From positions 1 to 17,428 of the IMG/VR virus record IMGVR_UViG_2657244986_000007: 17,428 bases of DNA; one strand, written 5' to 3'. The stretch comes from a virus. Lineage: Duplodnaviria > Heunggongvirae > Uroviricota > Caudoviricetes. Shown in pieces: positions 1,202 through 17,428 of the stretch (position 1 is the stretch's first letter; each line of letters opens with the position of its first letter). Below the pieces are notes generated by a model. That model worked only from the letters and a program-made list of their open reading frames with translations. It did no database searches and had not been told where the DNA came from. Made by a program: the position numbers and the translations under genes.

Positions 1202-1232
1202 CTTTATTTAACGAGTGCATTTATCCATCGTT
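1172..1232 (-). ncRNA. Short pR' leader transcript (6S-RNA analogue, about 60 nt)
   Basis: Inferred from promoter and terminator positions; transcript ends were not measured. Confidence 0.4.
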
Positions 1233-1270
1233 GAGTCAAATTTACCCAACTTTATTCAAAAAGTCAATAT
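1232..1270 (-). promoter_or_regulatory. Late promoter pR' with Q-utilisation (qut) region
   Basis: Minus strand has TTGACT (plus 1262-1267), a 17-bp spacer and TAAATT (plus 1239-1244), directly downstream of the Q stop, as in lambda. Confidence 0.7.
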
Positions 1271-1309
1271 TATGCCGTTAATATGTTGCCATCCGTGGCA
1301 ATCATGCTG

Positions 1310-1933: not shown

Positions 1934-2595
1934 GCGCCTTCTCCCTGTACCTGAATCAATGTGAGGTTTCCGCAGAACACTGCGCCGGTATCGATATACA
2001 TCTGGTTGGCAAACTTGAGTGGTTTCACTGCTGGCGTATGACCAAAGATGAACGTGTCCGCGCCTTTGATTTCTTTCACGATCCCGTCTTGTGAGTTGCT
2101 GATTCGTTCGCGGTTCCAGATTACCTGCTGATGATCAACTGGCTTTCCAAACTCGTATTCGTCACAAGGATAATCGGCGTGGCAGATGACGTATTTTTTA
2201 CCTTTGCTCACCAGTTCGATGATTAACGGAAGTTCATCTGCTTTATGGGCAAGAGCTTTAGCCAGAATTTCTTTGTCGTAATCGAGATTAAAGAGCCAGC
2301 CACCGCCATTAAACAGCCAGTGATTGACGTTTCCACGCTCTGATAAGCCATCAATCATCATTTGCTCATGGTTTCCACGTACAGCTCTGAACCAGGTGAA
2401 TGTGATTAATTCCAGGCATTCAACGTTCTCTGTACCGCGATCGACCAAATCGCCAACAGAGATAAGCAGGTCTTTTTTGGTGTCGAATCCTATCGTCTCC
2501 AGTTTTTCCATCAGGTTCGTGTAGCATCCGTGCAGATCGCCAACTACCCAAATATTTCGGTATTTGCTGCCATCAATTCTTTCGTAATAGCGCAT
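1930..2595 (-). CDS. Ser/Thr protein phosphatase (lambda PPase / ORF221-like), 221 aa
   Basis: From [25 protein letters not shown]...GNHE: the GDLHG, GDLVDRG and GNHE metallophosphatase motifs are present. Start chosen at the internal ATG (2595) with a GGAG Shine-Dalgarno; the track's 2670 start is probably an upstream extension. Confidence 0.9.
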
Positions 2596-2779
2596 CTCTT
2601 TCACTCCATCCGCGATGAACCATAAGAACGTCGTTGACGATGGCGTGCATTTTCCCGTCTTTATCATCAACGTATTTTCTGACCGTACCGCGACTACATT
2701 TCAGTCTGCGTGCTACTTCTGTCTGGTTTCCGTATGCTTCAACGAGCATGTCTGGAATGGTTTTTACTGAGAACGTCAT
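2573..2779 (-). CDS. ninH: NinH, 68 aa
   Basis: Protein [37 protein letters not shown]... is recognised as lambda NinH (HTH-like). Sits between ninG and the phosphatase. Confidence 0.9.
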
Positions 2780-3387
2780 GCGGCCTCACTTCTGCTGTTT
2801 CGCAGGTCTTTGAGTTTCTGCTGATACTCCGCCTTGATGGCCCTGCACTCTTCGACAGTCCAGCGATGGCGGTTATGGTTTGATTCGATTTCGTCTACTG
2901 CTTCCTGCCCAATGCGATTAATCAGTTCGACGCGATACGGAACGAGATTTCCGCTTTTGTGCTGGTTGCACACCACGCATTGCTTGTGAATATTGCGTTC
3001 ATCAAATCGGAGTTGAGGTGCCGCAGCAGTTGTCCGGTAATGTCCGGCATCCCACTGAGCAGACGTGAGCGTTCCGCACGAGATACATGGTAAGTCGCGG
3101 TCTCTTTCTCTGATGAAGGCGTTTACGGCTTGTTGGGCTTGTTTAATCCAGTAACTGCGGGGCTTTAAGGCGAGTTTTCGAATCTTAAGTTTATCTTTCT
3201 GTTTCTGCTCCTCTCGTCGTCGTTTCTTCTCTGCTGCTTTTTCCGCTTTTTCGCGTTCTTTGCTTCGTCGTTCGAGTGCTATCTTTGTTCCACACTCTGG
3301 AGAGCACCACCACTGATTAGCGAATGCAGGGTGAAACCATTCCCGACATTCTTCGTTTTTACATCGTCTTCGCGCTGGTTTAGCCAT
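2776..3387 (-). CDS. ninG: NinG / Rap recombination-associated structure-specific endonuclease
   Basis: Protein [33 protein letters not shown]... is recognised as lambda NinG. Confidence 0.9.
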
Positions 3388-3556
3388 CGTCTTCTTCCTC
3401 GTACATTGAGCTATTCGGATCGCTCATCAGTTCTGCACAGCAGTGCTCACACACGTGAACTTCCAGCACATGCAGCTTCTGACCGCAGTTAGCGCACGTT
3501 AAAGCCCGCTCGACGCTTTCTTTCTGGTATTGAAGGGATTGGGATGGACTAAGCAT
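3380..3556 (-). CDS. ninF: NinF, 58 aa (absent from the ORF track because under 60 aa)
   Basis: Hand translation of the minus strand gives [58 protein letters not shown]. The stop overlaps the ninG ATG. Confidence 0.85.
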
Positions 3557-3896
3557 TATTGGCGTCCTGCATCATGAGAAATACAATCATGGCGGCGCGG
3601 AGTGGGTTGTTGTCTATGGTAATAAATTCACAAAATCTATCCGCCTCCCACCAATATTCATTCTTCATTCCAGGATTATTTCTTTCGTATGCACATATGC
3701 TGATCTGATGTTTTGCAATTACAGGCCATGCATCTGCTGGGTTATTGCAGTAGTCGTACCATCGATAATTACCATTTACTTCATTGCCAACAGACCGTCC
3801 ATCTGCGTTGTGCGGATAACCTAATGGTTTTGCCCCAACTATCGCTTTAAATACTCGCTTGTTAATTTCAAAATCACTTAACTGTGAATAATCCAT
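3549..3896 (-). CDS. Hypothetical nin-region protein (NinX / DUF2591-like), about 115 aa
   Basis: ORF MDYSQLSDFEINKRVFKAIVGAKPLGYPHNADG.... Start placed at the ATG at 3896 (AGGA Shine-Dalgarno 7 nt upstream); an ATG at 3902 coupled to the ninE stop is the alternative. The track's 3938 start is a GTG extension. Confidence 0.65.
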   Translation of the reverse strand: MDYSQLSDFEINKRVFKAIVGAKPLGYPHNADGRSVGNEVNGNYRWYDYCNNPADAWPVIAKHQISICAYERNNPGMKNEYWWEADRFCEFITIDNNPLRAAMIVFLMMQDANNA

Positions 3897-3898
3897 TG

Positions 3899-4075
3899 TC
3901 ATTTCCTCGCACGATGTCTTAGCCACCGGATATCCCACAGGTGAGCCGTGTAGTTGAAGGTTTTTACGTCAGATTCTTTTGGGATTGGCTTGCGTTTATT
4001 TCTGGAGCGTTTCGTTGGAAGGTATTTGCAGTTTTCGCAGATTATGTCGGTGATACTTCGTCGCTGTCTCGCCAC
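3899..4075 (-). CDS. ninE: NinE, 58 aa, GTG start (absent from the ORF track)
   Basis: Hand translation: (M)[57 protein letters not shown], recognised as lambda NinE. AAGGAGG lies 4 nt upstream of the GTG. Confidence 0.75.
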
Positions 4076-4215
4076 ACGTCCTCCTTTTCCTGCGGTAGTG
4101 GTAACACCCCTGTTGGTGTTCTTTCACATCGGAGACACCATCGATTCCAGTAAGGTTGCCCGGGTCGAAAGCGATCGTCTTCCTTTCGCTCTCCACATCG
4201 ATAACAGTGCTTCAT
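4042..4215 (-). CDS. ninD: Small Cys-rich protein, probable NinD (57 aa)
   Basis: [34 protein letters not shown].... The ATG overlaps the methyltransferase stop (ATGA). Size and position match lambda ninD; the sequence was not verified from memory. Confidence 0.55.
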
Positions 4216-4802
4216 GCGATCACCATTTTGCATGGTTTAATCGCCATGCCGGTAGCCAGTTCAAAATCGGAGTCGCACTGATTGCCCCACATATCCCACC
4301 CGGTCACTTTGTCGCGGCTAAATAACTCACAGCGCGGCACGTCGCCAAGCAACTTAGCTAACATGTCTCTTACGATCGGTGGTTTTGCACTGTGCTCCAT
4401 TCTCGGTGCGGTAAAGTGCTGGCATATTGAAGCGTCCATTCTCTCAGGTAACCGCCCTCGAACGGCAAACAAGCAATCCTCGCTATTTGCCCGGGTCATA
4501 TGCCCCATTCCGATCGCACTGTTGCCTTTGTGCTTATTGGTTTTGTGCCAAGTAAAGCCTTTCATAGTCATCAACCTGAATCCCCACGCCTCAATTACCT
4601 TTAGCGCTTCGGCTGGCTGTGTCGGCACCCACCACATCGCTAACAAGCAAGATTCTGGATCCGCTAAATCCCATACTGGCAGTCGGCAAATGTCCTGAAC
4701 ATTCATAACATCGTATTTATGTCCAGCACCGCGATTGCCATCGTTGGCTTTGTCGCGATATTGCCAAGGCGGATCTGCGTAAATAAGTCGGTATTTGTTC
4801 AT
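4212..4802 (-). CDS. DNA N6-adenine methyltransferase, MT-A70 family, 196 aa
   Basis: N-terminal motif YADPPW (DPPW catalytic motif) and overall MT-A70-like layout. Occupies the position of lambda ninC, coupled to the ninB stop. Confidence 0.8.
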
Positions 4803-5239
4803 TCAGTTTTATCTCCCCATCTCGCTTTCCACTCCAGAGCCAGTCGCGCTTCGTCTGACCATTTAACGCCACGTTCTGTACCGAATGCCTGTATAAGCTC
4901 TAATAGCTCCGCAAATTCGCCTACACGCATCCTGCTGGTTGACTGGCCTATTACCACAAAGCCATTCCCGGCAAGGTTAGGAACAACGTCCTGCTGCTTT
5001 AATGCTGCGGTAAACACACACTTCCAGCTTTCTGCATCCAGCCAGCGACCATGCCATTCAACCTGACGAGAGACGTCACCAAGGCAAGCCCAAAGCTTTC
5101 GGTTTTGGTCTAAGCTGCGGTTGCGTTCCTGAATGGTTACTACGATTGGTTTGGTTGGGTCTGGAAGGATTTGCTGGATAGCTTGAATGGCGTTCTGCTG
5201 ATGGATGGGGCTTCTTAGTTCAAACGTTAGTTTCCTCAT
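4799..5239 (-). CDS. ninB: NinB recombination protein, 146 aa
   Basis: Protein MRKLTFELRSPIHQQNAIQAIQQILPDPTKPIVVTIQERNRSLDQNRKLWACLGDV... is recognised as lambda NinB. Confidence 0.9.
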   Translation of the reverse strand: MRKLTFELRSPIHQQNAIQAIQQILPDPTKPIVVTIQERNRSLDQNRKLWACLGDVSRQVEWHGRWLDAESWKCVFTAALKQQDVVPNLAGNGFVVIGQSTSRMRVGEFAELLELIQAFGTERGVKWSDEARLALEWKARWGDKTE

Positions 5240-5474
5240 TGCTCACCTTCTGCACGCATGGATTAATTAACGCCAAAATAGCTTCTGGTTTCTCAATAAC
5301 ATCGAACCGCTCACCACTTGCCATTCTTACAATCGTAATCCCGGCCTCAAATAGGGTTTCGATGTTGTCAGAGTTAACGTACAAGGGCTCATATGCACTT
5401 CTGGTGCTTTCTATCACGCCTGTGCTTGGTGGCTGATAGATGCTGCATTGCATGGTTAATTTTATAAATGGCAT
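5220..5474 (-). CDS. Hypothetical protein, 84 aa
   Basis: ORF with a strong Shine-Dalgarno (GGAG 7 nt before the ATG), in the ren-equivalent position between the helicase and ninB. Confidence 0.6.
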   Translation of the reverse strand: MPFIKLTMQCSIYQPPSTGVIESTRSAYEPLYVNSDNIETLFEAGITIVRMASGERFDVIEKPEAILALINPCVQKVSNEETNV

Positions 5475-5478
5475 ATAC

Positions 5479-5742
5479 TCACTCCTTCACTTTGATTCCA
5501 GCGGCGCGGATAGCCTCTACATCGCTTTCGTATTGCGATTCTGCACCTGAGTCATAGCCAATGTGATAATCACCGGGAAGTGGGCCTTTCTTTGGCTTTT
5601 GCAGCTCAATCTCGATAGCTGCTCGCGATGCCTGCCACGCTTGCCAATACATCTCAACTATATTGGCGTATATTTTATTTTTAGGATCACATCCGGTGTA
5701 ATTTTCAAACCATTCTTCAAACTGCTTTCTTGATTCGTCCAT
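5479..5742 (-). CDS. Hypothetical protein, 87 aa
   Basis: ORF MDESRKQFEEWFENYTGCDPKNKIY... with a GAGGG Shine-Dalgarno upstream. Confidence 0.6.
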   Translation of the reverse strand: MDESRKQFEEWFENYTGCDPKNKIYANIVEMYWQAWQASRAAIEIELQKPKKGPLPGDYHIGYDSGAESQYESDVEAIRAAGIKVKE

Positions 5743-5759
5743 CGATACTTACCCTCAGT

Positions 5760-5966
5760 TCAACTCACAAAACGCCACGCCATTTTTGCTACAGCGACAG
5801 GCATAACACCGATAATCACCCACAGGAAAATGCTACCGAAAAGCACACCCACCAGGTCTTTACCTTCGCCTACCAACCGGACAAAACTGCTGGCAACAAC
5901 AATGAACGTCGCCACCATCCACATAGCACCGAGAATCCTCAATGCAGAGAAAATTAACTCAGCCAC
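5760..5966 (-). CDS. Small hydrophobic protein with two predicted transmembrane segments, 68 aa, GTG start
   Basis: (M)AELIFSALRILGAMWMVATFIVVASSFVRLVGEGKDLVGVLFGSIFLWVIIGVMPVAVAKMAWRFVS. GGAGG lies 7-8 nt upstream of the GTG. Confidence 0.5.
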   Translation of the reverse strand: MAELIFSALRILGAMWMVATFIVVASSFVRLVGEGKDLVGVLFGSIFLWVIIGVMPVAVAKMAWRFVS

Positions 5967-5981
5967 GATTCACCCTCCCCC

Positions 5982-6013
5982 AAATAAAAAGGCCTGCGAT
6001 TACCAGCAGGCCT
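5982..6013 (-). terminator. tR2-like intrinsic terminator between the replication and nin modules
   Basis: Perfect inverted repeat AGGCCTGC-N8-GCAGGCCT (5990-6013) followed on the minus strand by TTTTTATTT. Confidence 0.7.
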
Positions 6014-6038
6014 GTTATTAGCTCAGTAATGTAGATGG

Positions 6039-7415
6039 TCATACGTCCGCTCCTTGTGCATATCGTCTGCCACGTGCAGCGGGTGCATTTGATGTTGTGC
6101 AAATCTGTCTGGCTTCATCCTGGTCACATGCAACAAAGTGTCCGTTGCAGAACCGCTGGTAAACCGTACCAAGCGAGCCAAAACGGTTTTTTGTCACAAT
6201 GATTTCAGCAAATGGTGCGGCGCTACTGTTCTCGTCATATACCGCTTCCCGATAGAGCATGATGATTGAGTCTGCGTCCTGTTCAATGCTTCCTGAATCA
6301 CGCAAATCTGCGTTTGTCGGGCGTTTGTTTGGTCGCTTCTCAACATCGCGCGAAAGCTGACTCAGGGAGATAACAGGCGTTTTCAGGTCTTTCGCCATCG
6401 CCTTCAGGCTTCCGGAGATGTGAGCAATTGCGAGGTCGTTGCGGTCTGCTTTCGGCTTCTCAATCAGGCCAAGATAATCCGCCATGATGAGTGACAGGTT
6501 TGGATTTTCCTGTTTGTGCCGTTCTGCGATTGAGCGTATTTCTTCGACCGATAACCGCGAGGCATCGACTACCCATACATCCAAATCTGCAAGCTGACTC
6601 ATGCCGTTAGCAACGCGCGCCCAGCCTTCGTCATCCATCGATGCAGGATTTCGCAGCACGCTAACCGACATCCTCCCGGCGTTGGCAATACTTCGCTCTG
6701 CAATCTGCAATGCGCTCATTTCCATCGAGAAAATCAACACTCCGCGCCGGACGTCAGAACCAGGAATAACGCGGCTTGCAACGCCTTCGGCAATCTTCAG
6801 CGCCAGTTCGGTTTTACCCATACCAGGACGAGCGGCGATAATCACCAGGTCTTCTGCGTTCATCCCTCCGGTGATGGCGTCAAGTTCGTCGATTCCGGTC
6901 TTCAGGGTATCTGACTCTTCTCCGTTCCTCAGACGCCTGTCAAGCGTGTCAGTGTAGTCAGTGATGATTTCCCCTAACCGTACAGGTTTAACCTCGTCAC
7001 GGGGCTTTCTGATGGCTGAAAGACGCTTTACAAGTTCATCCATCGCCTGACTCGATGCGTCGATGGTTCCGCTTTGGATTGGTTCACGCATTTCATCCAT
7101 GATTTCCAGCACCAGACGGCGGTGATAGTTATCCGCGACCATTCCGGCATATCCCTTCAGGTTTGCGGCACTCGGGCAGTTTTTGCTGGTCATCAGGATT
7201 GACGTGAAATGCTCCTCTCCGCACGCCTCGGCAACCATCAGCGCATCGATTAGGTTTCTGTTTCTCGCCTGCTTGCGAATAACCTCGAAGGCTTTCCGGT
7301 AGAGCGGAATTGAAAACGCTTCCGGCTCTAGCGTTGCCAGAACGTCGCTGGCAGTTGGTGTTAATCCACCAATCAGCAGGCCACCGATAACGCTCGCTTC
7401 GATATCCTGTTTCAT
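6039..7415 (-). CDS. Replicative DNA helicase, DnaB family, 458 aa
   Basis: Walker A ARPGMGKT and DnaB-like N- and C-terminal regions. Its ATG overlaps the O stop (ATGA). Confidence 0.9.
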
Positions 7416-8233
7416 GCAATCCCCCTGTCTGCAAACTTCCCTTCCCGTACTCCCATTAACGAATCTTCCCTCAGCAGGTAATCAAAATCAGCTGTCCAGC
7501 CCGTGTCGTTGTCTCCGAAGTAAAACGGCTTGGCCTGATGCACAAACGCCCTGACATACGCTCTGAAACCGTCCACGTTTGGCGTTTTCAGTTGCGGGAT
7601 GATTTTCTTCAGGCGGCGTTTGCGTTTCTCGTTGACCGCAACAGCGTGTGGCAGTCTGTCACCGACTTCGGTGTTGTAGGCGTTCAGGAAGGATTCGTAG
7701 TCGATTCGTTCTGCCTTGCGACGTTCAGGTTTAACCTGCCCATCGCCGCCCCCGTTAGGGGGTAAGGGGGTATTTGTATTTATTGTCTTTTGTATATTGT
7801 CTTTTGTGTTTAGCTGACTTGGCTTATACCCATTAGCCGACTCGGCTAATGTTTTATTAGCTGTTTTAGCTAATGTTAAGCTGTCCTGGCTAATCCACTG
7901 AGAAACCACCTTGTTCACTCCGATTTTCACGCCATCAGCAATGAGGAATTTACGCTCGATAAGCTGGCGCTTGGCAGCGCAAACATGAGTGTGATGAATA
8001 CCTGTCATGGCTGCTATCTGCGTGTTTGTGAGTCGATCCATCGGCTTATTGAATCCGTATGTCTTGCGCATGATAGCGAGCATCACCTTCAGCTGCCGGA
8101 CGGTTAAATCAGCCATCAGCAGACTGTCGGTAATCTCGTTAGCAACGCGCATGAAACCATCTTCGGTATCTGCCACGCGATGCTCCACGACCTCCAGTTG
8201 AGGCCTGTAATCAGCTAACTTAACGACGCCCAT
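7412..8233 (-). CDS. O: Replication initiator protein O (lambda O-like), 273 aa
   Basis: The N-terminal region (...[37 protein letters not shown]...) resembles lambda O. The gene contains the iteron array. Confidence 0.9.
7766..7894. repeat. Replication origin inside O: four iterons of about 19 bp plus an adjacent AT-rich region
   Basis: Iterons TTAGCTGACTTGGCTTATA, ATTAGCCGACTCGGCTAAT, ATTAGCTGTTTTAGCTAAT and TTAAGCTGTCCTGGCTAAT at about 7810-7894. AT-rich tract 7766-7809, next to a G-rich CCCCCGTTAGGGGGTAAGGGGG run. Confidence 0.8.
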
Positions 8234-8381
8234 GTTTCACTCCTGCTTTGGCTAGTCTGTAAACACCAACAAGGCGCTCTGCGAACGCCCTGCTATTTGC
8301 TGCGGCTACCACTAATCCCTCAGGTGAATCAGGGTGTCGAATCTCTTCTTTTTCCTGGTATTTCTTACGACGTTTTGTCAT
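8220..8381 (-). CDS. Small basic protein, 53 aa, between cII and O
   Basis: Hand translation: [58 protein letters not shown] lies 6 nt upstream of the ATG. The 3' end overlaps the O start. Confidence 0.45.
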   Translation of the reverse strand: MTKRRKKYQEKEEIRHPDSPEGLVVAAANSRAFAERLVGVYRLAKAGVKHGRR

Positions 8382-8384
8382 AAT

Positions 8385-8459
8385 TACTCCTGTGGATTGA
8401 TCCAGTCTTTCTACATCAGGCCTCGAAGAATTCGCCGTTCTTCGGGGCTTTTTCTTTTG
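8385..8459 (+). ncRNA. oop: oop-like antisense RNA overlapping the 3' end of cII, ending at an intrinsic terminator
   Basis: Plus-strand hairpin CCTCGAAGAA-TTCGCCG-TTCTTCGGGG (8421-8447) followed by CTTTTTCTTTTG, inside the last codons of cII, as for lambda oop. The 5' end and promoter were not located. Confidence 0.5.
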
Positions 8460-8697
8460 TCAGGTAATTGGCAAGCCGCTTAGTCAGCTCAGCCATTTCA
8501 TCGTCTTCGATTCCGTATTCCAGAACAGCCAGCATCATGCTTACCTGCGAGAAGAAACCATTCTTCCATCGGCTTACCTGATATTCAGGAACCCCCATCG
8601 CTCGAGCGAATGTCTTCTGCCCCATCAGTGCCAGTTTGTTCAGCAAGGCTGACTCGATGCGAGCCGCTTTCTTGCTTTTAGTTGCAATAGTACCCAT
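8416..8697 (-). CDS. cII: CII transcriptional activator homolog, 93 aa
   Basis: ...ARIESALLNKLALMGQKTFARAMGVPEYQVSRWKNGFFSQVSMMLAVLEYGIEDDEMAELTKRLA... resembles lambda CII. Confidence 0.9.
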   Translation of the reverse strand: MGTIATKSKKAARIESALLNKLALMGQKTFARAMGVPEYQVSRWKNGFFSQVSMMLAVLEYGIEDDEMAELTKRLANYLTKEKAPKNGEFFEA

Positions 8698-8719
8698 AGA
8701 TAATTTCCTTAATGATTAG

Positions 8720-8760
8720 ATAGAGTTGGCTTCGCAAAGAAACGCAAAACCATAGAGATT
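8720..8760 (+). promoter_or_regulatory. Probable pRE region with a CII-binding direct repeat (TTGC-N6-TTGC)
   Basis: Complement of 8724-8737 reads TTGCGTTTCTTTGC, at the 5' edge of cII and oriented for leftward (plus-strand) transcription toward cI. Confidence 0.55.
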
Positions 8761-8773
8761 TTTTTCTGGTAAT

Positions 8774-8805
8774 GCCCTTTTTCAGGGCGGGGATGTGTAA
8801 GAGCG
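8774..8805 (-). promoter_or_regulatory. nutR (boxA plus boxB hairpin)
   Basis: Minus strand reads CGCTCTTACACATCCCCGCCCTGAAAAAGGGC: boxA CGCTCTTACACA and the boxB stem-loop GCCCTGAAAAAGGGC, as in lambda nutR. Confidence 0.85.
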
Positions 8806-8813
8806 GGAATGTC

Positions 8814-10166
<1,353 letters not shown>

Positions 10167-10216
10167 TCCTCACCTCGATTTCGATAACCAAAAAACAAAC
10201 TATTTTCCGTTTAAAA

Positions 10217-10284
10217 ACAATGGAGTTTGTTTTTCACGCCCCTTTTTACAATATTTCTTGTTTACAACATACAATCTTTCTTGT
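10217..10284. promoter_or_regulatory. Left operator OL (three 434-type sites) with pL
   Basis: ACAATGGAGTTTGT (10217-10230), ACAATATTTCTTGT (10248-10261) and ACAATCTTTCTTGT (10271-10284), all ACAA-N6-TTGT. Confidence 0.85.
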
Positions 10285-10328
10285 AATTTTAAGCCATCAG
10301 CAGGACGCACTAACCACCATTGAAGGTG

Positions 10329-10359
10329 AGGCTCTTAAAAATTTAGCCCTGAAGAAGGG
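10329..10359 (+). promoter_or_regulatory. nutL (boxA plus boxB hairpin)
   Basis: GGCTCTTAAAAATTTAGCCCTGAAGAAGGGC: boxA-like GCTCTTAAA and the boxB stem-loop GCCCTGAAGAAGGGC. Confidence 0.8.
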
Positions 10360-10470
10360 CAGCATTCAAAGCAGAAAGCTTTGAGTAGCGCGAAATGCAG
10401 CTGCAAGGCAGCAACCGTGGAGATAAGCATCACGGCGCGTTACTCAAAGCTAACTGACAGGAGAATCCAG

Positions 10471-11368
<898 letters not shown>

Positions 11369-11401
11369 TTAAAAGACAGGCATACTAATAAACACTGCAC
11401 T

Positions 11402-11429
11402 GTGTATTCATTCCAACGAGTGAATACAC
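11402..11429. repeat. Perfect 9-bp inverted repeat, GTGTATTCA-N10-TGAATACAC
   Basis: Seen directly in the sequence. No U-tract on either strand, so it looks operator-like or RNA-structural rather than a terminator. Confidence 0.6.
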
Positions 11430-11491
11430 GGAGCAATGTCGCTCGTAACTAAACAGGAGCCGACTTGTTCTGATTATTGGAAATCTTCTTT

Positions 11492-11519
11492 GCCCTCCAA
11501 TGTGAGGGCAGTTTTTTTT
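11492..11519 (+). terminator. Intrinsic terminator (tL-like) 13 nt upstream of the next start codon
   Basis: GCCCTC-CAATGT-GAGGGC followed by AGTTTTTTTT. Confidence 0.7.
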
Positions 11520-11532
11520 GACGGAGTAAACG

Positions 11533-11781
11533 ATGATAAAAACTGATTACCCTGCAGAGCTTAAACAAAAAGTAATAACAGCAATTAAATGCTCTTTTAT
11601 CTCATGTCGTACAGATGAAGAACGATATGTCGTTGAGTGTGCAATTGTCGAGTTTCTCACAGCGATGGAATTTACCGCTGCAGAATCAATAGATGTATTA
11701 AAGCAATCAGACGGAAATGATATTGAAACGGATGATGTTATTGACCGACTAATAAAATCATTCGAAGAAGAAATAGAGTAG
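11533..11781 (+). CDS. Small acidic protein, 82 aa, unknown function
   Basis: MIKTDYPAELKQKVITAIKCSFISCRTDEERYVVECAIVEF...DGNDIETDDVIDRLIKSFEEEIE, with an acidic C-terminus. GGAG Shine-Dalgarno upstream. Confidence 0.65.
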   Translation: MIKTDYPAELKQKVITAIKCSFISCRTDEERYVVECAIVEFLTAMEFTAAESIDVLKQSDGNDIETDDVIDRLIKSFEEEIE

Positions 11782-11864
11782 CCGCCTGAGCGCGGCTTTA
11801 CCGCATACCAATAATGCTTCACGAGAGGCATTTTCGTTATGCAATCAAATATAAGGAGTTACCC

Positions 11865-11999
11865 ATGATGCACTTTCAGCTCGCGGGTAGCGGCGTCATG
11901 TCCGCTTTCTACCCGCACGAATCTGAATTATCACGCCGAGTTAAACAATTAATCAGAGCAGCAAAGAAACAACTGGAGGCGTTATGCGCAATGAAATAG
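11865..11999 (+). CDS. cIII: CIII-like small protein (putative FtsH-inhibitor helix), 44 aa
   Basis: MMHFQLAGSGVMSAFYPHESELSRRVKQLIRAAKKQLEALCAMK. Its central amphipathic helix resembles lambda CIII (ESLLERITRKLRDGWKRL). AAGGAG Shine-Dalgarno upstream. Confidence 0.55.
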   Translation: MMHFQLAGSGVMSAFYPHESELSRRVKQLIRAAKKQLEALCAMK

Positions 12000-12136
12000 C
12001 CATTAATCACCAGATGCTTCGTGCTGCACAGAACAAAGCAGTAATAGCCAGATTTATTGGTGATTCCAAAATGTGGCTTGAAGCAAATAAAGCGATGAAA
12101 TCAGCCATCAACCTTCCGTGGTATCGCAGGAAATGA
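11984..12136 (+). CDS. Small protein, 50 aa, possibly Kil-like
   Basis: Hand translation: MRNEIAINHQMLRAAQNKAVIARFIGDSKMWLEANKAMKSAINLPWYRRK. GGAGG Shine-Dalgarno upstream; overlaps the cIII-like 3' end in another frame. The Kil assignment is a recollection of a FIGDxKM-like motif, unverified. Confidence 0.4.
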   Translation: MRNEIAINHQMLRAAQNKAVIARFIGDSKMWLEANKAMKSAINLPWYRRK

Positions 12137-12211
12137 GTTTTACAGATAACTGGTAAGACGAAGAATTCATTCGTCAGATGAAAGAATTAATCGGTAACGA
12201 AGGAGATATTC

Positions 12212-12382
12212 ATGTCACTTGCAACCACAGTGAAGGAGAGCAAGTTACAGAGACGCATGTACACGCAGAAAGCTCTCTGGTATCGCCATAATGGCGACCG
12301 CGAAGGAATGCGGGTATGCCTTAATTTGTCCCGAGTCGAAGTATTAAATCAGCGTTATTTTCTTGGGCCATGTCCATTCTGA
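12212..12382 (+). CDS. Small hypothetical protein, 56 aa
   Basis: MSLATTVKESKLQRRMYTQKALWYRHNGDREGMRVCLNLSRVEVLNQRYFLGPCPF. AAGGAGA Shine-Dalgarno upstream. Ends 8 nt before the annealing-protein start. Confidence 0.4.
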   Translation: MSLATTVKESKLQRRMYTQKALWYRHNGDREGMRVCLNLSRVEVLNQRYFLGPCPF

Positions 12383-12390
12383 GGTGATTT

Positions 12391-13098
12391 ATGGATTTGA
12401 ATAAATTCGATGAGCCATTCAGCCCTGAAGATATCGAATGGCGAATACAGCAAAGCGGTAAAACACGCGATGGCAAAGTGTGGGCTATGGTGCTGGCTTA
12501 TGTCACGAACCGGGCAATCATGAAACGCCTGGACGATGTTTGCGGCAAAGCAGGATGGCGCAATGAATACCGCGATATTCCCAACAACGGAGGCGTTGAA
12601 TGCGGCATATCAATCAGGATTGATTCCGAATGGGTAACCAAATGGGATGCTGCTGAAAACACGCAGGTAGAAGCCGTCAAAGGTGGTCGTTCAGGTGCAA
12701 TGAAGCGTGCTGCCGTTCAGTGGGGAATCGGTCGGTATCTGTATAACCTTGAGGAAGGTTTCGCACAAACATCTCTCGATAAAAAGCATGGGTGGCACAG
12801 GGCAAAACTGAAGGATGGAACAGGATTTTACTGGTCCCCTCCATCGCTGCCGGGCTGGGCAATCCCAGCATCAGATAACAAACCATCACCAGAAAATACC
12901 AACCAGAAATCTCCATCGGTTGACTGCGAACAAATCCTGAAAGACTTCAGCGATTATGCGTCAACAGAAACTGACAAGAAAAAACTCATCGAGCGTTATC
13001 AGCGTGACTGGCAATTAATGGCTGGCAACGAGGAGGCGCAGGCTAAATGCGTTCAGGTAATGAACATCAGAGTTAACGAGCTAAAACAGGCGGCATAA
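12391..13098 (+). CDS. Single-strand annealing recombinase, Rad52/Rad22 family, 235 aa
   Basis: Central motif ...GGRSGAMKRAAVQWGIGRYLYNL... is typical of Rad52-type phage annealing proteins. Located upstream of SSB and an exonuclease. Confidence 0.8.
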   Translation: MDLNKFDEPFSPEDIEWRIQQSGKTRDGKVWAMVLAYVTNRAIMKRLDDVCGKAGWRNEYRDIPNNGGVECGISIRIDSEWVTKWDAAENTQVEAVKGGRSGAMKRAAVQWGIGRYLYNLEEGFAQTSLDKKHGWHRAKLKDGTGFYWSPPSLPGWAIPASDNKPSPENTNQKSPSVDCEQILKDFSDYASTETDKKKLIERYQRDWQLMAGNEEAQAKCVQVMNIRVNELKQAA

Positions 13099-13572
13099 AT
13101 GGCAAGCAGAGGCGTAAATAAGGTGATCATTATTGGTCGCCTTGGGCATGATCCAGAAATCAGATATTCACCATCAGGAACGGCATTTGCAAACCTTACA
13201 GTTGCTACGTCAGAACAATGGCGTGATAAGCAAACTGGAGAGCAAAAGGAGCAGACGGAGTGGCACCGCGTGGTAATGAGCGGGAAACTGGCAGAAATTG
13301 CCAGCGAATATCTGCGAAAAGGCTCTGAGGTTTATCTTGAAGGAAAATTGCGGACAAGAAAATGGCAGGATCAAAGCGGACAGGATCGGTTCACTACCGA
13401 AGTCATCGTGGGCGTTGGTGGAACCATGCAAATGCTTGGTGGCAAGCAAGGAGGCAATGAACAGTCTTCACCTCAGCGAAATAACGGCCAGCAACAAAGA
13501 CAGCAATCTCAGCAGCATGGGAATCACAGCGAACCACCTATGAACTTCGACGATTCGGATATTCCGTTCTAG
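13099..13572 (+). CDS. ssb: Single-stranded DNA-binding protein (SSB), 157 aa
   Basis: OB-fold N-terminus ([43 protein letters not shown]...TEWHRVV), Gly/Gln-rich linker and acidic tail ending DDSDIPF. Confidence 0.95.
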
Positions 13573-13581
13573 GAGCTGAAT

Positions 13582-14061
13582 ATGAAAGTCTGCTCAAGAT
13601 GCCATCAACAGAAGGAAGAAAGGGACTTTCAAATCAGAAGAGCATCCAGAGATGGATTAACTGCCGCTTGCCGGGCTTGCCTGGCTGAATACGACAAAGA
13701 ACGCGCTGGATTGCCACATCGAGTATCAGCAAGGAGAGAATATCAATCATCGGAACGCGGAAGAGAACGGTGTAACGCAGCCAAAAAGCGGTTCATTCAG
13801 AGCAACCCATGGAAAAGAAAAGCCCACATCATTGTGGGTAATTTTTTGCGCGACGGTAAGCTAATCCGACCACCACAATGTGAGTGCTGCGGATCAGAAT
13901 GTAAACCACAGGCGCACCACTGCGACTACAGCAAACCAACCGATGTGATGTGGCTCTGCAAGTCATGTCATGTCGAGTGGCACAAACATAACAAACCTAT
14001 CTACCCAGACGAGGAACCAGTAACTCTCCCCTTCCCTCGTCACGCTATTCACGCAATTTAA
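13582..14061 (+). CDS. HNH-family endonuclease, 159 aa
   Basis: Cys pairs CSRCH, CRAC and CECCG, plus ...QAHHCDYSKPTDVMWLCKSCHVEWH, consistent with an HNH/zinc-binding nuclease motif. Confidence 0.7.
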   Translation: MKVCSRCHQQKEERDFQIRRASRDGLTAACRACLAEYDKERAGLPHRVSARREYQSSERGRERCNAAKKRFIQSNPWKRKAHIIVGNFLRDGKLIRPPQCECCGSECKPQAHHCDYSKPTDVMWLCKSCHVEWHKHNKPIYPDEEPVTLPFPRHAIHAI

Positions 14062-14069
14062 GGACTTAC

Positions 14070-14618
14070 ATGAATCACTTGATGGTTGACCTTGAAACAA
14101 TGGGCAACGGGCCATACGCGCCAGTTATTTCTATTGGGGCGGTATTCTTTGACCCGAATACCGGAGAAACAGGAGAAGAGTTCTCGGTAAATATCTCGCT
14201 TGAATCATCAATGCGATATCGAGCGCGTCCTGACGCTTCAACGATTTTATGGTGGCTGGAACAGAGTGAAGAAGCCAGAAAATCGCTAACCAGCAACACT
14301 CAGGAGCTTTCAACGGCTCTTTCATGGTTATCTGAATTCATCATAAAGAACGCTAACCACAAATTCGTTCAGGTTTGGGGGAATGGAGCATCATTTGACT
14401 GCGTTATTCTCCGAAACAGTTATTCGCTGACAGGGCAGCCAGTTCCGTGGCAGTGGTGGAATGACCGCGACGTAAGAACAATCGTCGAACTTGGGAAGGT
14501 AATAGGATTCGACCCTAAGCGAGATATGCCATTCAAAGGAACTCGCCACAACGCGCTTGATGATGCCATTCACCAAGCCAAATACGTTTCAGCGATCTGG
14601 AAAAAGTTAGCTAAATAA
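14070..14618 (+). CDS. 3'-5' exonuclease, DEDD (DnaQ-like) family, 182 aa
   Basis: Exo I motif MVDLETMG and Exo III motif H-NALDDA; size and layout fit DEDDh exonucleases. Confidence 0.8.
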   Translation: MNHLMVDLETMGNGPYAPVISIGAVFFDPNTGETGEEFSVNISLESSMRYRARPDASTILWWLEQSEEARKSLTSNTQELSTALSWLSEFIIKNANHKFVQVWGNGASFDCVILRNSYSLTGQPVPWQWWNDRDVRTIVELGKVIGFDPKRDMPFKGTRHNALDDAIHQAKYVSAIWKKLAK

Positions 14619-14634
14619 TCAACAGGAGAAAACC

Positions 14635-14931
14635 ATGCCAGCGCCTCTGTATGGTGCGGATGACGCGCGCCGCTGTTCCGGCAATTCCGTATCGGAGGTG
14701 CTGGATAAATTCAGAAAAAACTACGATCGGATAATGTCGCTACCGCAGGAAACGAAAGAGGAAAAGGAATTTCGCCATTGTATATGGCTTGCAGAGAAAG
14801 AAGAACGAGAGCGAATTTACCAGACATCAATCCGACCATTCCGCAAAGCCACATATACCCAATTCCCTGAATATATCGACCCGCGCCTGCGTAATTACCG
14901 CTCACGCTATGGCGCTATCAGTAATGACTGA
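14635..14931 (+). CDS. Hypothetical protein, 98 aa
   Basis: ORF with AGGAGA Shine-Dalgarno upstream; no recognisable motif. Confidence 0.55.
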
Positions 14932-14941
14932 GGAATTTACC

Positions 14942-15109
14942 ATGAGAGGACTTGCATACAATCCCGGCATTCTTCCGGCAGAAATGATTATTCGCCAACG
15001 CGTAAAGCCAATGCCATCGAGAGAGGAATTGCTTAAGAGAAAGAGTTTCGGTTCTGTTAATGACAACAAATATCTGAATGCGATGTTGCGCAAAGGAGGC
15101 AACCGGTGA
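14942..15109 (+). CDS. Hypothetical small protein, 55 aa
   Basis: [55 protein letters not shown], with GAGGAA upstream. The track ORF 14789..15109 is probably an extension. Confidence 0.45.
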
Positions 15110-15189
15110 CTGGACATGCAGCGATCCTCGACATGTGCTGTGGCAGCCGCATGTTCTGGTTAGATAAGAATGACGAACGGGCGAGATAA
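15106..15189 (+). pseudogene. 27-codon ORF with a strong RBS, possibly a truncated methyltransferase N-terminus (gene remnant)
   Basis: AGGAGG lies 5 nt before a GTG that overlaps the preceding stop (GTGA). Peptide (M)[26 protein letters not shown]; ILDMCCGS resembles SAM-binding motif I. Stops in all frames follow. Confidence 0.3.
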
Positions 15190-15239
15190 GCGATCGGTTA
15201 AGTGCTATAGTAATGCGCTTTTGTATTTATGGAGTGAAT

Positions 15240-15938
15240 ATGAAAAATATCCTACTGGCATCATTGTTAGTGGCATCGCCGGGTGCATTTGCAGCCAGCT
15301 TTGACTGCCAAAAGGCTTCGACAGCAATCGAACATAAAATCTGCGATAACGAACGTCTGTCAAAATTAGACGAACAGCTTAGCTCTGCCTATTCTAGTGC
15401 CCTCAAAGAAAACCCAGAGAACGCAGACACCATAAAAATGGTTCAACGTCAGTGGGTAAATATGCGTGGAAAACTCACTGATAATAAGGCTCTGGAGCTG
15501 GCTTATCTTATCCAAATTAATGGCCTCAAAGGTTTGGGGAGTTCAGTCAGCGTAACAGCGGCCAATGAGATACCCACGTCGACGCAGAAACATTCTGAAG
15601 AGCAGGAAGAAACAAGTAAGGCAGAAGTTAAGTCGGTCAAGAACGGCAATAAGCTAACCTTAGAGTCATTCCGAGCTAAATATGTAGAAGTAGATGGTGA
15701 GTATTACAGCACGACATCCATTCCTAGAGGCAGTTCGTTCTTGTTCACTTGCGCCAGTCGTATTGCTGATGACCAAGTGAATGTTTGGAAGAAACATGCA
15801 GCCAAAGAGGGCAAAATCGACCTATTCTTTGAGGTTGAGAATCACTTACACACTGCTATGTTGAACGCCAATTTCCAGAAGTTGAATTCAGACCCTGCCA
15901 AAAGAGGTATTTGTAATCTGATTAACGCAGTGCCGTAA
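15240..15938 (+). CDS. Secreted protein with an N-terminal LprI-like (DUF1311, lysozyme-inhibitor-like) domain, 232 aa
   Basis: Signal peptide MKNILLASLLVASPGAFA, then FDCQKASTAIEHKICDNERLSKLDEQLSSAYSSALKE...QRQWVNMRG, the hallmark DUF1311 pattern. AT-rich gene. The track start at 15213 is an extension. Confidence 0.75.
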   Translation: MKNILLASLLVASPGAFAASFDCQKASTAIEHKICDNERLSKLDEQLSSAYSSALKENPENADTIKMVQRQWVNMRGKLTDNKALELAYLIQINGLKGLGSSVSVTAANEIPTSTQKHSEEQEETSKAEVKSVKNGNKLTLESFRAKYVEVDGEYYSTTSIPRGSSFLFTCASRIADDQVNVWKKHAAKEGKIDLFFEVENHLHTAMLNANFQKLNSDPAKRGICNLINAVP

Positions 15939-15948
15939 GTAAATTTAG

Positions 15949-15978
15949 GGCCACAGTTGTGGCCTTAAATATTTTTTC
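15949..15978 (+). terminator. Putative intrinsic terminator after the LprI-like gene
   Basis: GGCCA-CAGTTG-TGGCC followed by TTAAATATTTTTT. Confidence 0.55.
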
Positions 15979-16106
15979 AGCCTTTTCTTATTTGTAATAA
16001 GCAGTACTTAGTAGTGCTTATAAAACAGAATAAAAAACATATGACTTTGGCGATTACCCAGTAAAGATATTCGAAATAAATGTAAATATCGGCAATGAAT
16101 AACAAT

Positions 16107-16133
16107 CCTCGCACTCGCGGGGATTTCTTTTAT
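16107..16133 (+). terminator. Hairpin plus U-tract immediately upstream of the 16145 gene (terminator or attenuator-like)
   Basis: CCTCGC-ACTC-GCGGGG (one G.U pair) followed by ATTTCTTTTAT. The RBS GGGGA and the ATG follow within about 12 nt. Confidence 0.4.
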
Positions 16134-16144
16134 ATGGGGATAAT

Positions 16145-16945
16145 ATGACCATCCACTTTCACGGCAGCCCAATATGGGGGGATGAGCATGCCCCTACAGA
16201 TATGCTGATTAAAGCCCTTTACCGTGATGGTGGGGCTTTTGTTTCATTTGCCAGACCAGAGCAGATGAAAAAGATTGCCATGTTCCCTTGTGATATACGC
16301 CTTGATAACGGCGCTTTTAGCGACTGGATGAAAGCATTAAAGAAAGGCACTCCGGTAGACTGGAGTAAGAGGCGAGCAAAATTCTACGACTTTGTTGGGA
16401 AGTGGTTCAGCAGAATTGAATGGTTTCTTATACCTGACGTTATCGAAGGGACAGAGGCAGAAAACGACGAGCAGATTGAGTTGGTTCCTGATTGGCTAAA
16501 ATCAAAAGCGGTTCCGGTCTGGCATACCGACGAATCAATTGAACGTCTTTTACGCCTTTCTGGCAAATTTGAATGGGTGGCGATTGGATGCTGCGGCCCA
16601 CACAGGCACATACGCTCTAAATGGTGGGAACAGAGAATGGATGAAGTTTTCACTGAGCTTTATATCAATCGTAATTTGAAAGTGAAAATTCATGGTCTTC
16701 GAATGCTCGACGTGAGAGTTCTTGGTATGTATCCGTTCGCCAGTGCGGATTCTACTAATGTTGCTGTTAACGTACCGAAGACAGAGAAGCGATTTCCTGA
16801 GATTACTGACAAACTGGCACGTACAGCTGTACTTCGCGCTGCTATTGAAAAGGTGCACCCGCCATCGATATCAGCATGGGTAGACAGAAAGATGAGAGAG
16901 CCGGCGCAAGCCGGTTTTTTATTTGAATTCACCGACGCCGCTTAA
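16145..16945 (+). CDS. Protein of unknown function, 266 aa
   Basis: Long ORF preceded by GGGGA. No motif I can assign with confidence (no P-loop, no PP-loop, no HTH recognised). Confidence 0.75.
   Translation: MTIHFHGSPIWGDEHAPTDMLIKALYRDGGAFVSFARPEQMKKIAMFPCDIRLDNGAFSDWMKALKKGTPVDWSKRRAKFYDFVGKWFSRIEWFLIPDVIEGTEAENDEQIELVPDWLKSKAVPVWHTDESIERLLRLSGKFEWVAIGCCGPHRHIRSKWWEQRMDEVFTELYINRNLKVKIHGLRMLDVRVLGMYPFASADSTNVAVNVPKTEKRFPEITDKLARTAVLRAAIEKVHPPSISAWVDRKMREPAQAGFLFEFTDAA
16899..16924 (+). terminator. Intrinsic-terminator-like hairpin with a GCAA tetraloop inside the last 15 codons of the 16145 gene
   Basis: CCGGC-GCAA-GCCGG followed by TTTTTTATTT. Confidence 0.55.
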
Positions 16946-16964
16946 TGCGGATTTCTTTTATCTG

Positions 16965-16989
16965 AACTCGCTACGGCGAGTTTTGTTTT
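16965..16989 (+). terminator. Intrinsic terminator downstream of the 16145 gene
   Basis: AACTCGC-TACG-GCGAGTT followed by TTTGTTTT. Confidence 0.6.
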
Positions 16990-17002
16990 ATGGAGATGAT
17001 AA

Positions 17003-17170
17003 ATGCACTTCCGAGTAACAGGTGAATGGAATGGAGAACCATTCAACAGAGTTATCGAAGCAGAGAACATCAACGACTGCTATGACCACTGGATGCTGTG
17101 GGCGCAGATGGCACATGCAGACGTAACCAATATTCGAATTGAAGAACTGAAAGAACACCAAGCCGCCTGA
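17003..17170 (+). CDS. Small hypothetical protein, about 55 aa
   Basis: MHFRVTGEWNGEPFNRVIEAENINDCYDHWMLWAQMAHADVTNIRIEELKEH.... GGAGA Shine-Dalgarno upstream. The 3' end is uncertain by a few nt: my hand reading and the ORF track disagree on the stop position. Confidence 0.4.
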   Translation: MHFRVTGEWNGEPFNRVIEAENINDCYDHWMLWAQMAHADVTNIRIEELKEHQAA

Positions 17171-17186
17171 TGGCGGTTTTTTATTG
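17160..17186 (+). terminator. Intrinsic terminator
   Basis: CCGCC-TGAT-GGCGG followed by TTTTTTATT. Confidence 0.7.
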
Positions 17187-17227
17187 CCTGATTTGCAGGT
17201 TCGATTCCCTATTCGGAGATAGCACTC

Positions 17228-17428
17228 ATGCAACACGAACTACAGCCTGATTCACTGGTTGATTTGAAATTCATCATGGCCGATACTGGATTCGGTAAAA
17301 CCTTCATCTATGACCGGATTAAGTCCGGAGACCTTCCAAAAGCCAAAGTTATCCACGGGCGAGCAAGATGGTTATATCGTGACCATTGTGAATTCAAAAA
17401 TAAGCTCTTAAGCCGCGCCAATGGGTAA
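17228..17428 (+). CDS. Excisionase / AlpA-family small DNA-binding protein (Xis-like), 66 aa
   Basis: ...LKFIMADTGFGKTFIYDRIKSGDLPKAKVIHGRARWLYRDHCEF... looks like an AlpA/Xis-type HTH. It sits at the distal end of the leftward operon where xis is expected; integrase would lie beyond the window. Confidence 0.55.
   Translation: MQHELQPDSLVDLKFIMADTGFGKTFIYDRIKSGDLPKAKVIHGRARWLYRDHCEFKNKLLSRANG

Follow-up and report, generated by a model that had tools for sequence, protein, structure and literature searches.

Why would a temperate phage hold a single early gene boxed in between two terminator-like hairpins, with a third hairpin of the same kind formed by the gene's own last codons? The gene lies in a 17,428-nucleotide stretch of DNA from a tailed phage of the Caudoviricetes (IMG/VR record IMGVR_UViG_2657244986_000007, positions 1 to 17,428); the whole of that stretch is called the window here. 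A first-pass annotation had noted a 266-codon open reading frame (ORF) and three hairpin/T-tract elements, all of which are present (Table 1), and had left the gene without a function or a family. Judged by its sequence and its modeled fold, the gene is a lone (“singleton”) phage guanine transglycosylase of the DpdA1 type, with a TIM barrel like that of tRNA-guanine transglycosylase (TGT). Its product probably acts early in the lytic cycle as a DNA guanine transglycosylase that depends on a host-made precursor and is possibly tethered to the sliding clamp.

What identifies the gene? Phage HK106 carries a near-identical copy, gp29 (YP_007151699; 98.5% nucleotide and 98.9% amino acid identity), which Hutinet et al. 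2019 (PMC6884629) name among the singleton DpdAs in their Supplementary Data 1. The window gene belongs to a known family, is effectively identical to a catalogued phage gene, and needs no new category. The same study assembled a “group 3” of 76 phages that have DpdA and lack genes for preQ0 or G+ synthesis, which also includes SfI, SE131, SEN1, SPN3UB, BTP1, and 7-11. It judged the modification status of this group hard to predict and found that the singleton DpdAs of gammaproteobacterial phages form their own cluster. A search of the literature for HK106 or BTP1 together with DpdA, or for DpdA in temperate phages, returned nothing relevant beyond this 2019 supplementary listing. The RefSeq name of the HK106 copy, “queuine tRNA-ribosyltransferase,” is probably misleading, and it is inconsistent with the annotation by PGAP, in which a protein identical to that of the window (WP_053901189.1, from Escherichia coli 2018-01-1CC, NZ_AP021892.1, L072:9146-9946) is named “hypothetical protein.”

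The link to a DpdA of known function runs through phage CAjan, whose enzyme, a member of the DpdA1 subfamily, is required for dPreQ0 in the phage DNA (PMC6884629). The window protein matches phrog_887 (“queuine tRNA-ribosyltransferase”) with an E value of 1.4e-102, and CAjan DpdA matches the same PHROG with an E value of 8e-96. A direct BLASTP comparison of the two proteins gives an E value of 2e-5 (about 24% identity over 87 residues), and hhalign aligns a 42-sequence profile of the window family with CAjan DpdA over 151 columns (probability 95%, E value 3e-8). The window protein is thus homologous to an experimentally validated phage DpdA, and its membership in the DpdA family is near certain. 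The family comprises 1779 clusters (50% identity) at an E value of 1e-3 or less, 133 of which reach 1e-30, and it ranges over Proteobacteria, Acidobacteria, and Planctomycetes. One homologue, P0007 (72% identical; L070:1-3795), adjoins an LPD7 polyvalent-protein gene and an Hha-family gene, a context that is plasmid-like and not that of a prophage.

The predicted fold agrees with this assignment. An AlphaFold2 model built on the family alignment (pLDDT 92.5) is a TGT-like (beta/alpha)8 barrel with a tail that is disordered from residue 255, so the TIM-barrel transglycosylase fold that the first-pass annotation had proposed checking was recovered in the model. The protein ends about 45 residues past beta-8. 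In its predicted structure the protein is most like bacterial DpdA and TGT enzymes. A Foldseek comparison with the PDB was non-specific. In a viral structure library, all 27 significant matches were phage proteins, and every named one was a queuine or queuosine tRNA-ribosyltransferase.

Does the barrel carry a recognizable active site? The first reading of the sequence had seen no catalytic motif, but three of the TGT/DpdA type are there: LDNGAF, VWH, and SADST. Conservation was scored in 42 homologues, in all of which D54, D98, H127, G148/G151, and D202 are invariant. In LDNGAF, the same holds for N55 and A57, and conservation of G56 and F58 is 90% or higher; W126 beside the conserved His and S203 beside D202 do not vary either. 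The hhalign alignment pairs LDNGAFS, VPVWH, and SADST of the window protein with LDSGAFS, LPCFH, and SCDSS of CAjan DpdA, so that the catalytic Asp pair and the conserved His, the latter absent from DpdA2, line up with CAjan residues. In bacterial DpdA, the roles demonstrated or proposed are acid/base for D95, gate for F99, base recognition for D130 and H181, and nucleophile for D256, and G206/G207 are among the important residues as well (PMC10164549). The invariant residues of the window family keep this order, one per strand end; the equivalence is drawn from motif order and the CAjan alignment.

CAjan DpdA shares with the window protein not only its PHROG but also LD(S/N)GAF, the conserved His, (A/C)DS(T/S), and the lack of a Pfam match; neither sequence contains the zinc-site motif CxCxxC...H. 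The two phages differ in what surrounds the gene. CAjan is a virulent phage with a polymerase and a processivity factor of its own; it has genes for the complete FolE/QueD/QueE/QueC pathway and for a preQ0 transporter, and about 32% of the G in its DNA is modified. The window gene stands alone. The bacterial enzyme (Salmonella Montevideo, PDB 7ui4) is a more distant likeness, at 16% identity. Beyond the shared order of catalytic and base-recognition residues, its DNA preQ0 insertase chemistry is a predicted resemblance, by analogy. It differs in having 413 residues, a zinc site (CxCx2Cx22H), and a large insertion, Ins8, none of which the window protein has, and in working with the DpdB ATPase inside a restriction-modification-like island, whereas the neighbors of the window gene are ordinary lambdoid early genes. 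Membership in the bacterial Dpd system was accordingly considered and rejected: the protein has 266 residues rather than 413, and there is no Cys motif, Ins8, DpdB partner, or dpd cluster.

Why, then, is the gene boxed in? The answer lies in phages that do not have it. The cassette that carries the gene is missing from Bas106 and phiv205-1, which are otherwise collinear, and is present in HK106; many other lambdoid and P22-like phages keep the flanks and lack the gene. At the empty sites of Bas106 and phiv205-1, hairpin 1 is followed by TCTTTTAT, CTG, hairpin 2, and then TTGTTTTATGGAGATGATAAATG, with which the small downstream gene begins. The window and HK106 have an additional 828 bp inside the hairpin 1 T-tract, which separate genes that are neighbors in these relatives. 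A 13-mer, GGATTTCTTTTAT, occurs exactly twice in the window, against 0.03 expected, and once at the empty site. Among 5426 complete E. coli genomes, 79 (about 1.5%) carry the cassette and 2442 the flanks only. Many of the genome matches begin at 16949, exactly at the right repeat, which is also where the homology common to thousands of E. coli prophages begins.

Because hairpins 1 and 2 are already adjacent in phages without the gene, the boxing is inherited from the insertion site. On this comparison of filled and empty sites, it is an accident of history and not a regulatory design. Insulation is not a trait of the family either, since the BTP1 homologue lies among overlapping ea genes without terminators. 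A Pantoea homologue (71% identical) has a hairpin of its own, followed by TTTCTTTATATGAGG before the ATG. This arrangement suggests that the cassette was inserted by recombination through microhomology in a common T-tract and ribosome-binding site.

The hairpin and U-tract noted close before the ribosome-binding site are confirmed, the stem ending about 11 nucleotides upstream of it. What had looked like an attenuator, however, is the terminator of the preceding module, which adjoins hairpin 2 in gene-less relatives. The terminator-like hairpin downstream of the gene is likewise real, and the following gene, with its ribosome-binding site and ATG, begins immediately after it. As for the earlier proposal of an insulated cargo gene with a defense or DNA-modification role, a DpdA-family cassette missing from collinear phages was found, and the insulation proved to be inherited from the insertion site.

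HK106 has the gene at the same place, between both hairpins and the direct repeats and upstream of the lambdap35-like gene, xis, and int. The two phages differ upstream, where HK106 has a small gene that ends at hairpin 1 and the window has an LprI-like gene and a gene relic. The relic is an in-frame 3' remnant of an ORF6/ASCH-type gene. Of its residues, 13 of 18 are identical to the C terminus of phiv205-1 ORF6 (E value 6e-8), and its DNA also aligns with the empty-site phages. As read from these alignments, the LprI-like module took the place of most of that gene, and the relic is the recombination scar of the exchange. The AT-rich stretch at 15981-16106, once suggested as a possible promoter, is this recombination junction together with the 22-codon relic, and no sigma-70-like site was found in it. 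In other respects the cassette resembles lambdoid morons and mosaic boundaries such as Sf6 bsq and those of HK97 and HK022: a single gene has come between two that are neighbors in relatives, a terminator follows it, and the junctions fall at short conserved sequences. It differs from classical morons in that no promoter of its own was detected and the flanking terminators belong to the recipient site.

When would such a gene be expressed? From about 9.1 kb onward, the plus strand of the window is a lambdoid early-left (pL) operon. After N, the gene order is anti-restriction protein, cIII, Kil, Erf, SSB, Lar-like endonuclease, exonuclease, and Abc2. A consensus scan of 15971-16144, which could miss weak or atypical promoters, found no sigma-70-like site, and thus no moron-type promoter that would be active in the lysogen. 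Lambda N lets RNA polymerase read through terminators. Given nutL, N, and the lack of a promoter-like site, expression most likely comes only from N-modified pL transcripts early in the lytic cycle, and the sequence context marks the dpdA-like gene as probably an early lytic gene.

On what would the enzyme act? The closest evidence comes from its relatives. Independent fusions join homologues to two different classes of DNA adenine methyltransferase: a Dam-type domain (PF05869) in P0006 (76% identical) and in the homologues at L010 and L011, and a D12-class domain (PF02086) in the homologue at L012. Of 59 genome loci, 13 have a gene for a DNA methyltransferase (Dam, D12, or C5) no more than 4 kb from the homologue. 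These fusions and neighbors argue that the target is DNA and not tRNA. At L010 and L011, the next gene is C5-cytosine-methyltransferase-like.

The neighborhood of the relatives also bears on the base that is inserted. The closest relatives that are not identical (86%, 81%, and 76% identity) and the PEAT2 homologue (64%) are each immediately preceded by a YhhQ-family gene, which overlaps the start of dpdA in the three metagenomic ones. The three of these four upstream genes that were checked match PF02592, and the annotation of the PEAT2 copy is VUT family. In a PHROG scan of one copy, it fell into the family of the “putative preQ0 transporter” of CAjan. The YhhQ-family neighbor ties the DpdA-like family to 7-deazaguanine precursors. 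The window has no gene that would supply 7-deazaguanine, whether of the FolE/QueD/QueE/QueC set or for a YhhQ transporter, and a YhhQ gene is also missing from the HK106 cassette. With neither synthesis nor transport of preQ0 encoded in the window, we infer that the base, preQ0 or preQ1, must come from the queuosine pathway of E. coli. DpdA2 alone, expressed in E. coli, inserts host preQ0 or preQ1 at about 10^3 per 10^6 nucleotides (PMC10516641), and a singleton in an E. coli phage could in principle do likewise.

The disordered tail of the protein offers a further hint. Residues 255-266 have pLDDT below 50, and the tail peptide, KMREPAQAGFLFEFTDAA, includes the motif QAGFLF six residues from the C terminus. 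PAQAGFLF appears to be the window's form of a C-terminal QxxLF/QLxLxL motif that runs through the family after a variable spacer. Enterobacterial and metagenomic members have tails with QLDLF, QLDMF, QLQLF, QLSLAL, QLRLAL, or QLCLL; those from Cupriavidus and Janthinobacterium have PIQRGLFGEAA, PIQESLFGEAA, or PIQAPLFMAAA; Pseudomonas members have QAEMAL or QTELAL; others have QADLF, QQDLF, or QEELF; and BTP1 has QLQLAV (sequences drawn from family proteins P0001-P0268, loci L009-L067, and L074:2504-3259). With a fixed motif definition applied to the last 15 residues of stand-alone members, the motif was found in 57 of 156 tails, against 0.9 +/- 0.9 in shuffled tails and only 9 of 2392 internal windows. 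It also occurs in 22 of 92 representatives that share no more than 50% identity.

Short peptides of this kind are known from proteins that bind the bacterial sliding clamp. The hexapeptide clamp-motif variants of Pol IV and Hda resemble family tails. So does the beta-clamp-binding consensus QL(S/D)LF found at C termini (PMC9690074). Much as in such clamp binders, the motif is a Q-x-x-hydrophobic-x-hydrophobic peptide in a C-terminal tail that is predicted to be disordered in the window protein, and many family members have the canonical QLDLF, QLDMF, or QLSLAL. CAjan DpdA homologues (P0269-P0388) almost all end in (I/V)QELF, and CAjan itself (L005:1852-2769) ends in VMELF, a C terminus ending acidic-Leu-Phe being a further likeness to CAjan. 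In the CAjan genome, the gene named “DNA polymerase processivity factor” is two genes away from dpdA. The 7-11-type proteins of virulent phages have no clamp-like tail. It is conceivable, if at somewhat less than even odds, that phage DpdA-type enzymes carry a conserved C-terminal peptide that binds the sliding clamp, in the form of QAGFLF in the window and xQELF in the CAjan type. The DpdA literature that was searched contains no mention of a clamp, of processivity, or of a C-terminal motif, and no link between DpdA and the clamp in substance, so clamp binding by the DpdA tail would be a new proposal from sequence. The commonest C-terminal dipeptide among 233 distinct tails is Ala-Ala, found in 14 of them where 1.6 would be expected. 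In many cases the dipeptide comes after the clamp-like motif, as in QRGLFGEAA and in FEFTDAA of the window protein, and it recalls ssrA/ClpX-type degrons.

Taken together, these features suggest the following course of events. An 828-bp cassette would have entered the T-tract between tandem terminators by recombination, with a 13-bp direct repeat as its trace. In the lytic cycle, delayed-early transcription from pL would reach the gene, with N antitermination carrying the polymerase through the intrinsic terminators at the far end of the operon. E. coli would supply preQ0 or preQ1 through its queuosine pathway. With D202 as nucleophile and D54 as general acid/base, the enzyme would then exchange guanine in double-stranded DNA for the 7-deazaguanine base. 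The disordered tail, through QAGFLF, would probably tether the enzyme to the host beta sliding clamp and so place it on newly replicated phage DNA. Modification with 7-deazaguanine might then alter recognition by host nucleases, which would be the anti-restriction benefit.

Several findings weigh against this proposal. Searches of Pfam (E value up to 1), NCBIfam, and PDB sequences with the window protein gave no meaningful match, nor did a search of PDB sequences with the 42-sequence profile. The validated CAjan DpdA likewise has no match in Pfam or the PDB sequence set, so the silence of these libraries is uninformative about membership. At D98 the alignment is ambiguous, the acidic residue of CAjan lying three positions later. 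In the tail, QAGFLF is non-canonical with respect to QL[SD]LF, and in the CAjan-type xQELF the Gln is one position off the register of the pentapeptide. Bacterial DpdA requires the DpdB ATPase (PMC10164549), and the window contains no equivalent of it. Among relatives that have been tested, the DpdA of Salmonella phage 7-11 stands nearest (58% identical); it is also the only tested singleton from a gammaproteobacterial phage, and that phage likewise lacks preQ0 genes. The DNA of phage 7-11 contained only 50 dADG per 10^6 nucleotides (about 0.02% of G) and no dPreQ0, which is far too rare to be a general restriction shield. Phage 7-11 differs in being a 90-kb virulent phage with this trace of dADG, and its enzyme belongs to a short-tail class of DpdA without the clamp-like motif. 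By analogy with it, the subgroup to which the window DpdA belongs may mark only a few sites per genome.

Could the three hairpins be a purpose-built unit after all, with an upstream attenuator and an internal conditional terminator that tunes transcription of xis and int? All three are stable and have T-tracts, and five such elements cluster just upstream of xis. Terminator-like sites number 10 in 15000-17428, against 2.4 +/- 1.9 in shuffles, and five of the six strong plus-strand hairpins, those in the pL direction, fall within the 1.25 kb of 15943-17179, a region in which terminators overlapping ORF ends recur. Hairpins 1 and 2, however, pre-exist side by side in gene-less phages, which leaves the intragenic hairpin to be explained. 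It had been placed in the last 15 codons; it occupies codons 251-259 and begins 16 codons before the stop, and the GCAA loop and T6ATTT are as described. With 11 pairs (5 of them GC) and a U-tract, it has the GC-rich stem of an intrinsic terminator, and five sequences of 76-100% protein identity all have CCGGC/GCCGG, although they vary in the loop and at nearby synonymous sites. The homologues of 76-86% identity (L069, L068, and L002) keep the identical stem, with loops that differ synonymously (GCAA versus TCAG). Yet only one stem pair has two synonymous sites, which makes this conservation weak evidence; no compensatory changes were seen in the five identical stems, which supports neither side, and homologues of 71-72% identity have no such hairpin. 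Its location is not a sensible one for a terminator, and structural conservation was not found. The L002 copy of the hairpin falls mid-ORF, within the gene for a 460-residue DpdA-Dam fusion, and in L068 and L069 the genes downstream of it overlap or abut the ORF, so that termination there would be counter-productive. Translating ribosomes and N-modified polymerase should each suppress it as well. The stem and T-run encode E-P-A-Q-A-G-F-L-F, with TTT TTA TTT as the T-tract. Read from these codons, the hairpin is better explained as mainly a by-product of the PAQAGFLF coding sequence than as the dedicated terminator it was first taken for; it may cause some pausing or termination when translation is uncoupled. 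A purpose-built regulatory unit is unlikely on this evidence.

Other readings accept the enzyme and change its target or its timing. If it altered host or phage tRNA at Q34, as a tRNA-guanine transglycosylase would, it could tune translation or evade anticodon nucleases. The RefSeq name of HK106 gp29 and the name of phrog_887 say as much, and the catalytic Asp motifs are identical in kind. The name is an inherited annotation, however, and a Tgt-type protein would be expected to look different: there is no match to PF01702 in Pfam (E value up to 1) or to any NCBIfam model, and a zinc site and a C-terminal RNA-binding region or subdomain are lacking in a protein of only 266 residues. Homology to DpdA, a proven DNA-acting enzyme, the repeated fusion or proximity of homologues to DNA methyltransferases, and a C-terminal motif of the clamp-binding type all point away from tRNA, and a tRNA role is quite improbable. 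A role in the lysogen is improbable too. In that case the enzyme would serve prophage defense or superinfection exclusion by attacking or re-editing Queuovirinae-type 7-deazaguanine DNA, or by marking host DNA as “self.” A moron-like cassette in a variable prophage region, with terminators on either side, would suit such a role; glycosylases that target dPreQ0 DNA are known as defenses (bioRxiv 10.1101/2025.10.29.685425), and bacterial DpdA is part of the restriction-modification-like Dpd system. But the gene lies in a pL operon that is repressed by cI and depends on N, so that expression in the lysogen is not expected; no promoter-like site was found from the upstream terminators to the ATG, no partner restriction genes of the dpdB-K type occur in the window, and the relatives are DpdAs of virulent phages that modify their own DNA. 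Hardly credible is a TGT-like enzyme whose target is not a nucleic acid, of the Cap10 type that conjugates a nucleobase to protein in type IV CBASS, or an inactive relic. The window contains neither a QueC-like Cap9 nor a CD-NTase partner, the protein is related in sequence to phage DpdA rather than Cap10, fusions to DNA methyltransferases occur among its homologues, and catalytic residues that are invariant in a family of 1779 clusters do not belong to a relic. An early lytic DNA guanine transglycosylase remains the reading we favor.

The features of the window and of the relatives discussed above are collected in Table 1. Several functions directed at nucleases share the operon with the dpdA-like gene, namely, the Lar-like endonuclease, the anti-restriction protein, and Abc2. 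The window also combines an immunity and antitermination region of the lambda N type with the P22/HK-like recombination genes Erf and Abc2.

Table 1. Positions of features in the window and, in the last two rows, in loci of related genes (dG, hairpin free energy)
Feature	Position	Strand	Remarks
nutR boxB	8774-8788	-	Exact lambda sequence
cI-type repressor	9133-9765		
nutL boxB	10346-10360	+	GCCCTGAAGAAGGGC; exact lambda match, chance expectation 0.01
N gene	10381-10794	+	PF11438, phrog_271; just downstream of nutL boxB
Anti-restriction protein	11533-11781		
159-residue “endonuclease”	13582-14061		phrog_2340; N-terminal stretch also matches the Lar-like restriction-alleviation family
LprI-like gene	15213-15938	+	
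Hairpin and T-tract after LprI-like gene	15943-15970	+	12-bp stem, dG -17.6 kcal/mol, z -4.0
3' relic of ORF6/ASCH-type gene	16034-16102	+	22 codons in frame plus TAA; just before hairpin 1
Hairpin 1	16104-16125	+	AATCCTCGCACTCGCGGGGATT, then T-tract TCTTTTAT; 9-bp stem, dG -13.5 kcal/mol, z -3.8
Direct repeat, left copy	16121-16133	+	13 bp, GGATTTCTTTTAT
Inserted cassette	16134-16961	+	828 bp: ribosome-binding site, dpdA-like ORF, short 3' tail, second repeat copy
Putative ribosome-binding site of dpdA-like ORF	16136-16139	+	GGGG
dpdA-like ORF	16145-16945	+	266 residues, ATG start
Codons D54-N-G-A-F58 (LDNGAF)	16304-16318	+	Putative general acid/base Asp and gating Phe; compare TGT DSGGF
Codon H127 (VPVWH)	16523-16525	+	Conserved His typical of DpdA1 and bacterial DpdA (H181)
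Codon D202 (SADST)	16748-16750	+	Putative nucleophile Asp; bacterial DpdA D256
Intragenic hairpin	16895-16920	+	CCGGC/GCCGG, GCAA loop, T6ATTT; dG -17.7, z -4.5
Q255-A-G-F-L-F260, clamp-binding-like motif	16907-16924	+	In disordered tail
Direct repeat, right copy	16949-16961	+	13 bp, GGATTTCTTTTAT
Hairpin 2	16964-16983	+	Followed by TGTTTTAT; 8-bp stem, dG -14.2, z -3.8
55-residue gene	17003-17170	+	phrog_676; HK106 record: similar to lambda hypothetical protein lambdap35
Hairpin and T-tract overlapping stop of 55-residue gene	17160-17179	+	Stop codon in loop, GCCGCCTGATGGCGG
Excisionase, TorI/Xis type	17228-17428 (window end)	+	phrog_66; far end of the pL operon; named TorI by PGAP in an identical E. 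coli prophage
DpdA-like/DNA adenine methyltransferase fusions	L002:6001-7383, L010:4001-5704, L011:4001-5719, L012:4001-5686		
YhhQ/Vut_1-family genes upstream of dpdA	L002:5540-6004, L068:2648-3004, L069:3-485; phage PEAT2 (H24)		

What does this single gene tell us about its phages? A lone DpdA without a precursor pathway is kept by temperate enterobacterial phages and by about 1.5% of complete E. coli genomes. Filled and empty sites show that single-gene cassettes move among lambdoid phages, probably through recombination inside terminator T-tracts, and genes gained in this way will appear “insulated” without any regulatory design. The clamp-like motif and the methyltransferase fusions point to a DNA marking that is coupled to replication and probably limited in its sites. 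If the tail does bind the clamp, insertion of 7-deazaguanine would be physically coupled to the replisome, and the tether would explain both how phage DpdA does without the DpdB ATPase and why modification is post-replicative. The terminator-like intragenic hairpin would then be a nucleic acid shadow of the tail peptide's codons, and the window enzyme would travel with the host beta clamp as the phage replicates early in the lytic cycle, using preQ0 or preQ1 made by its host.

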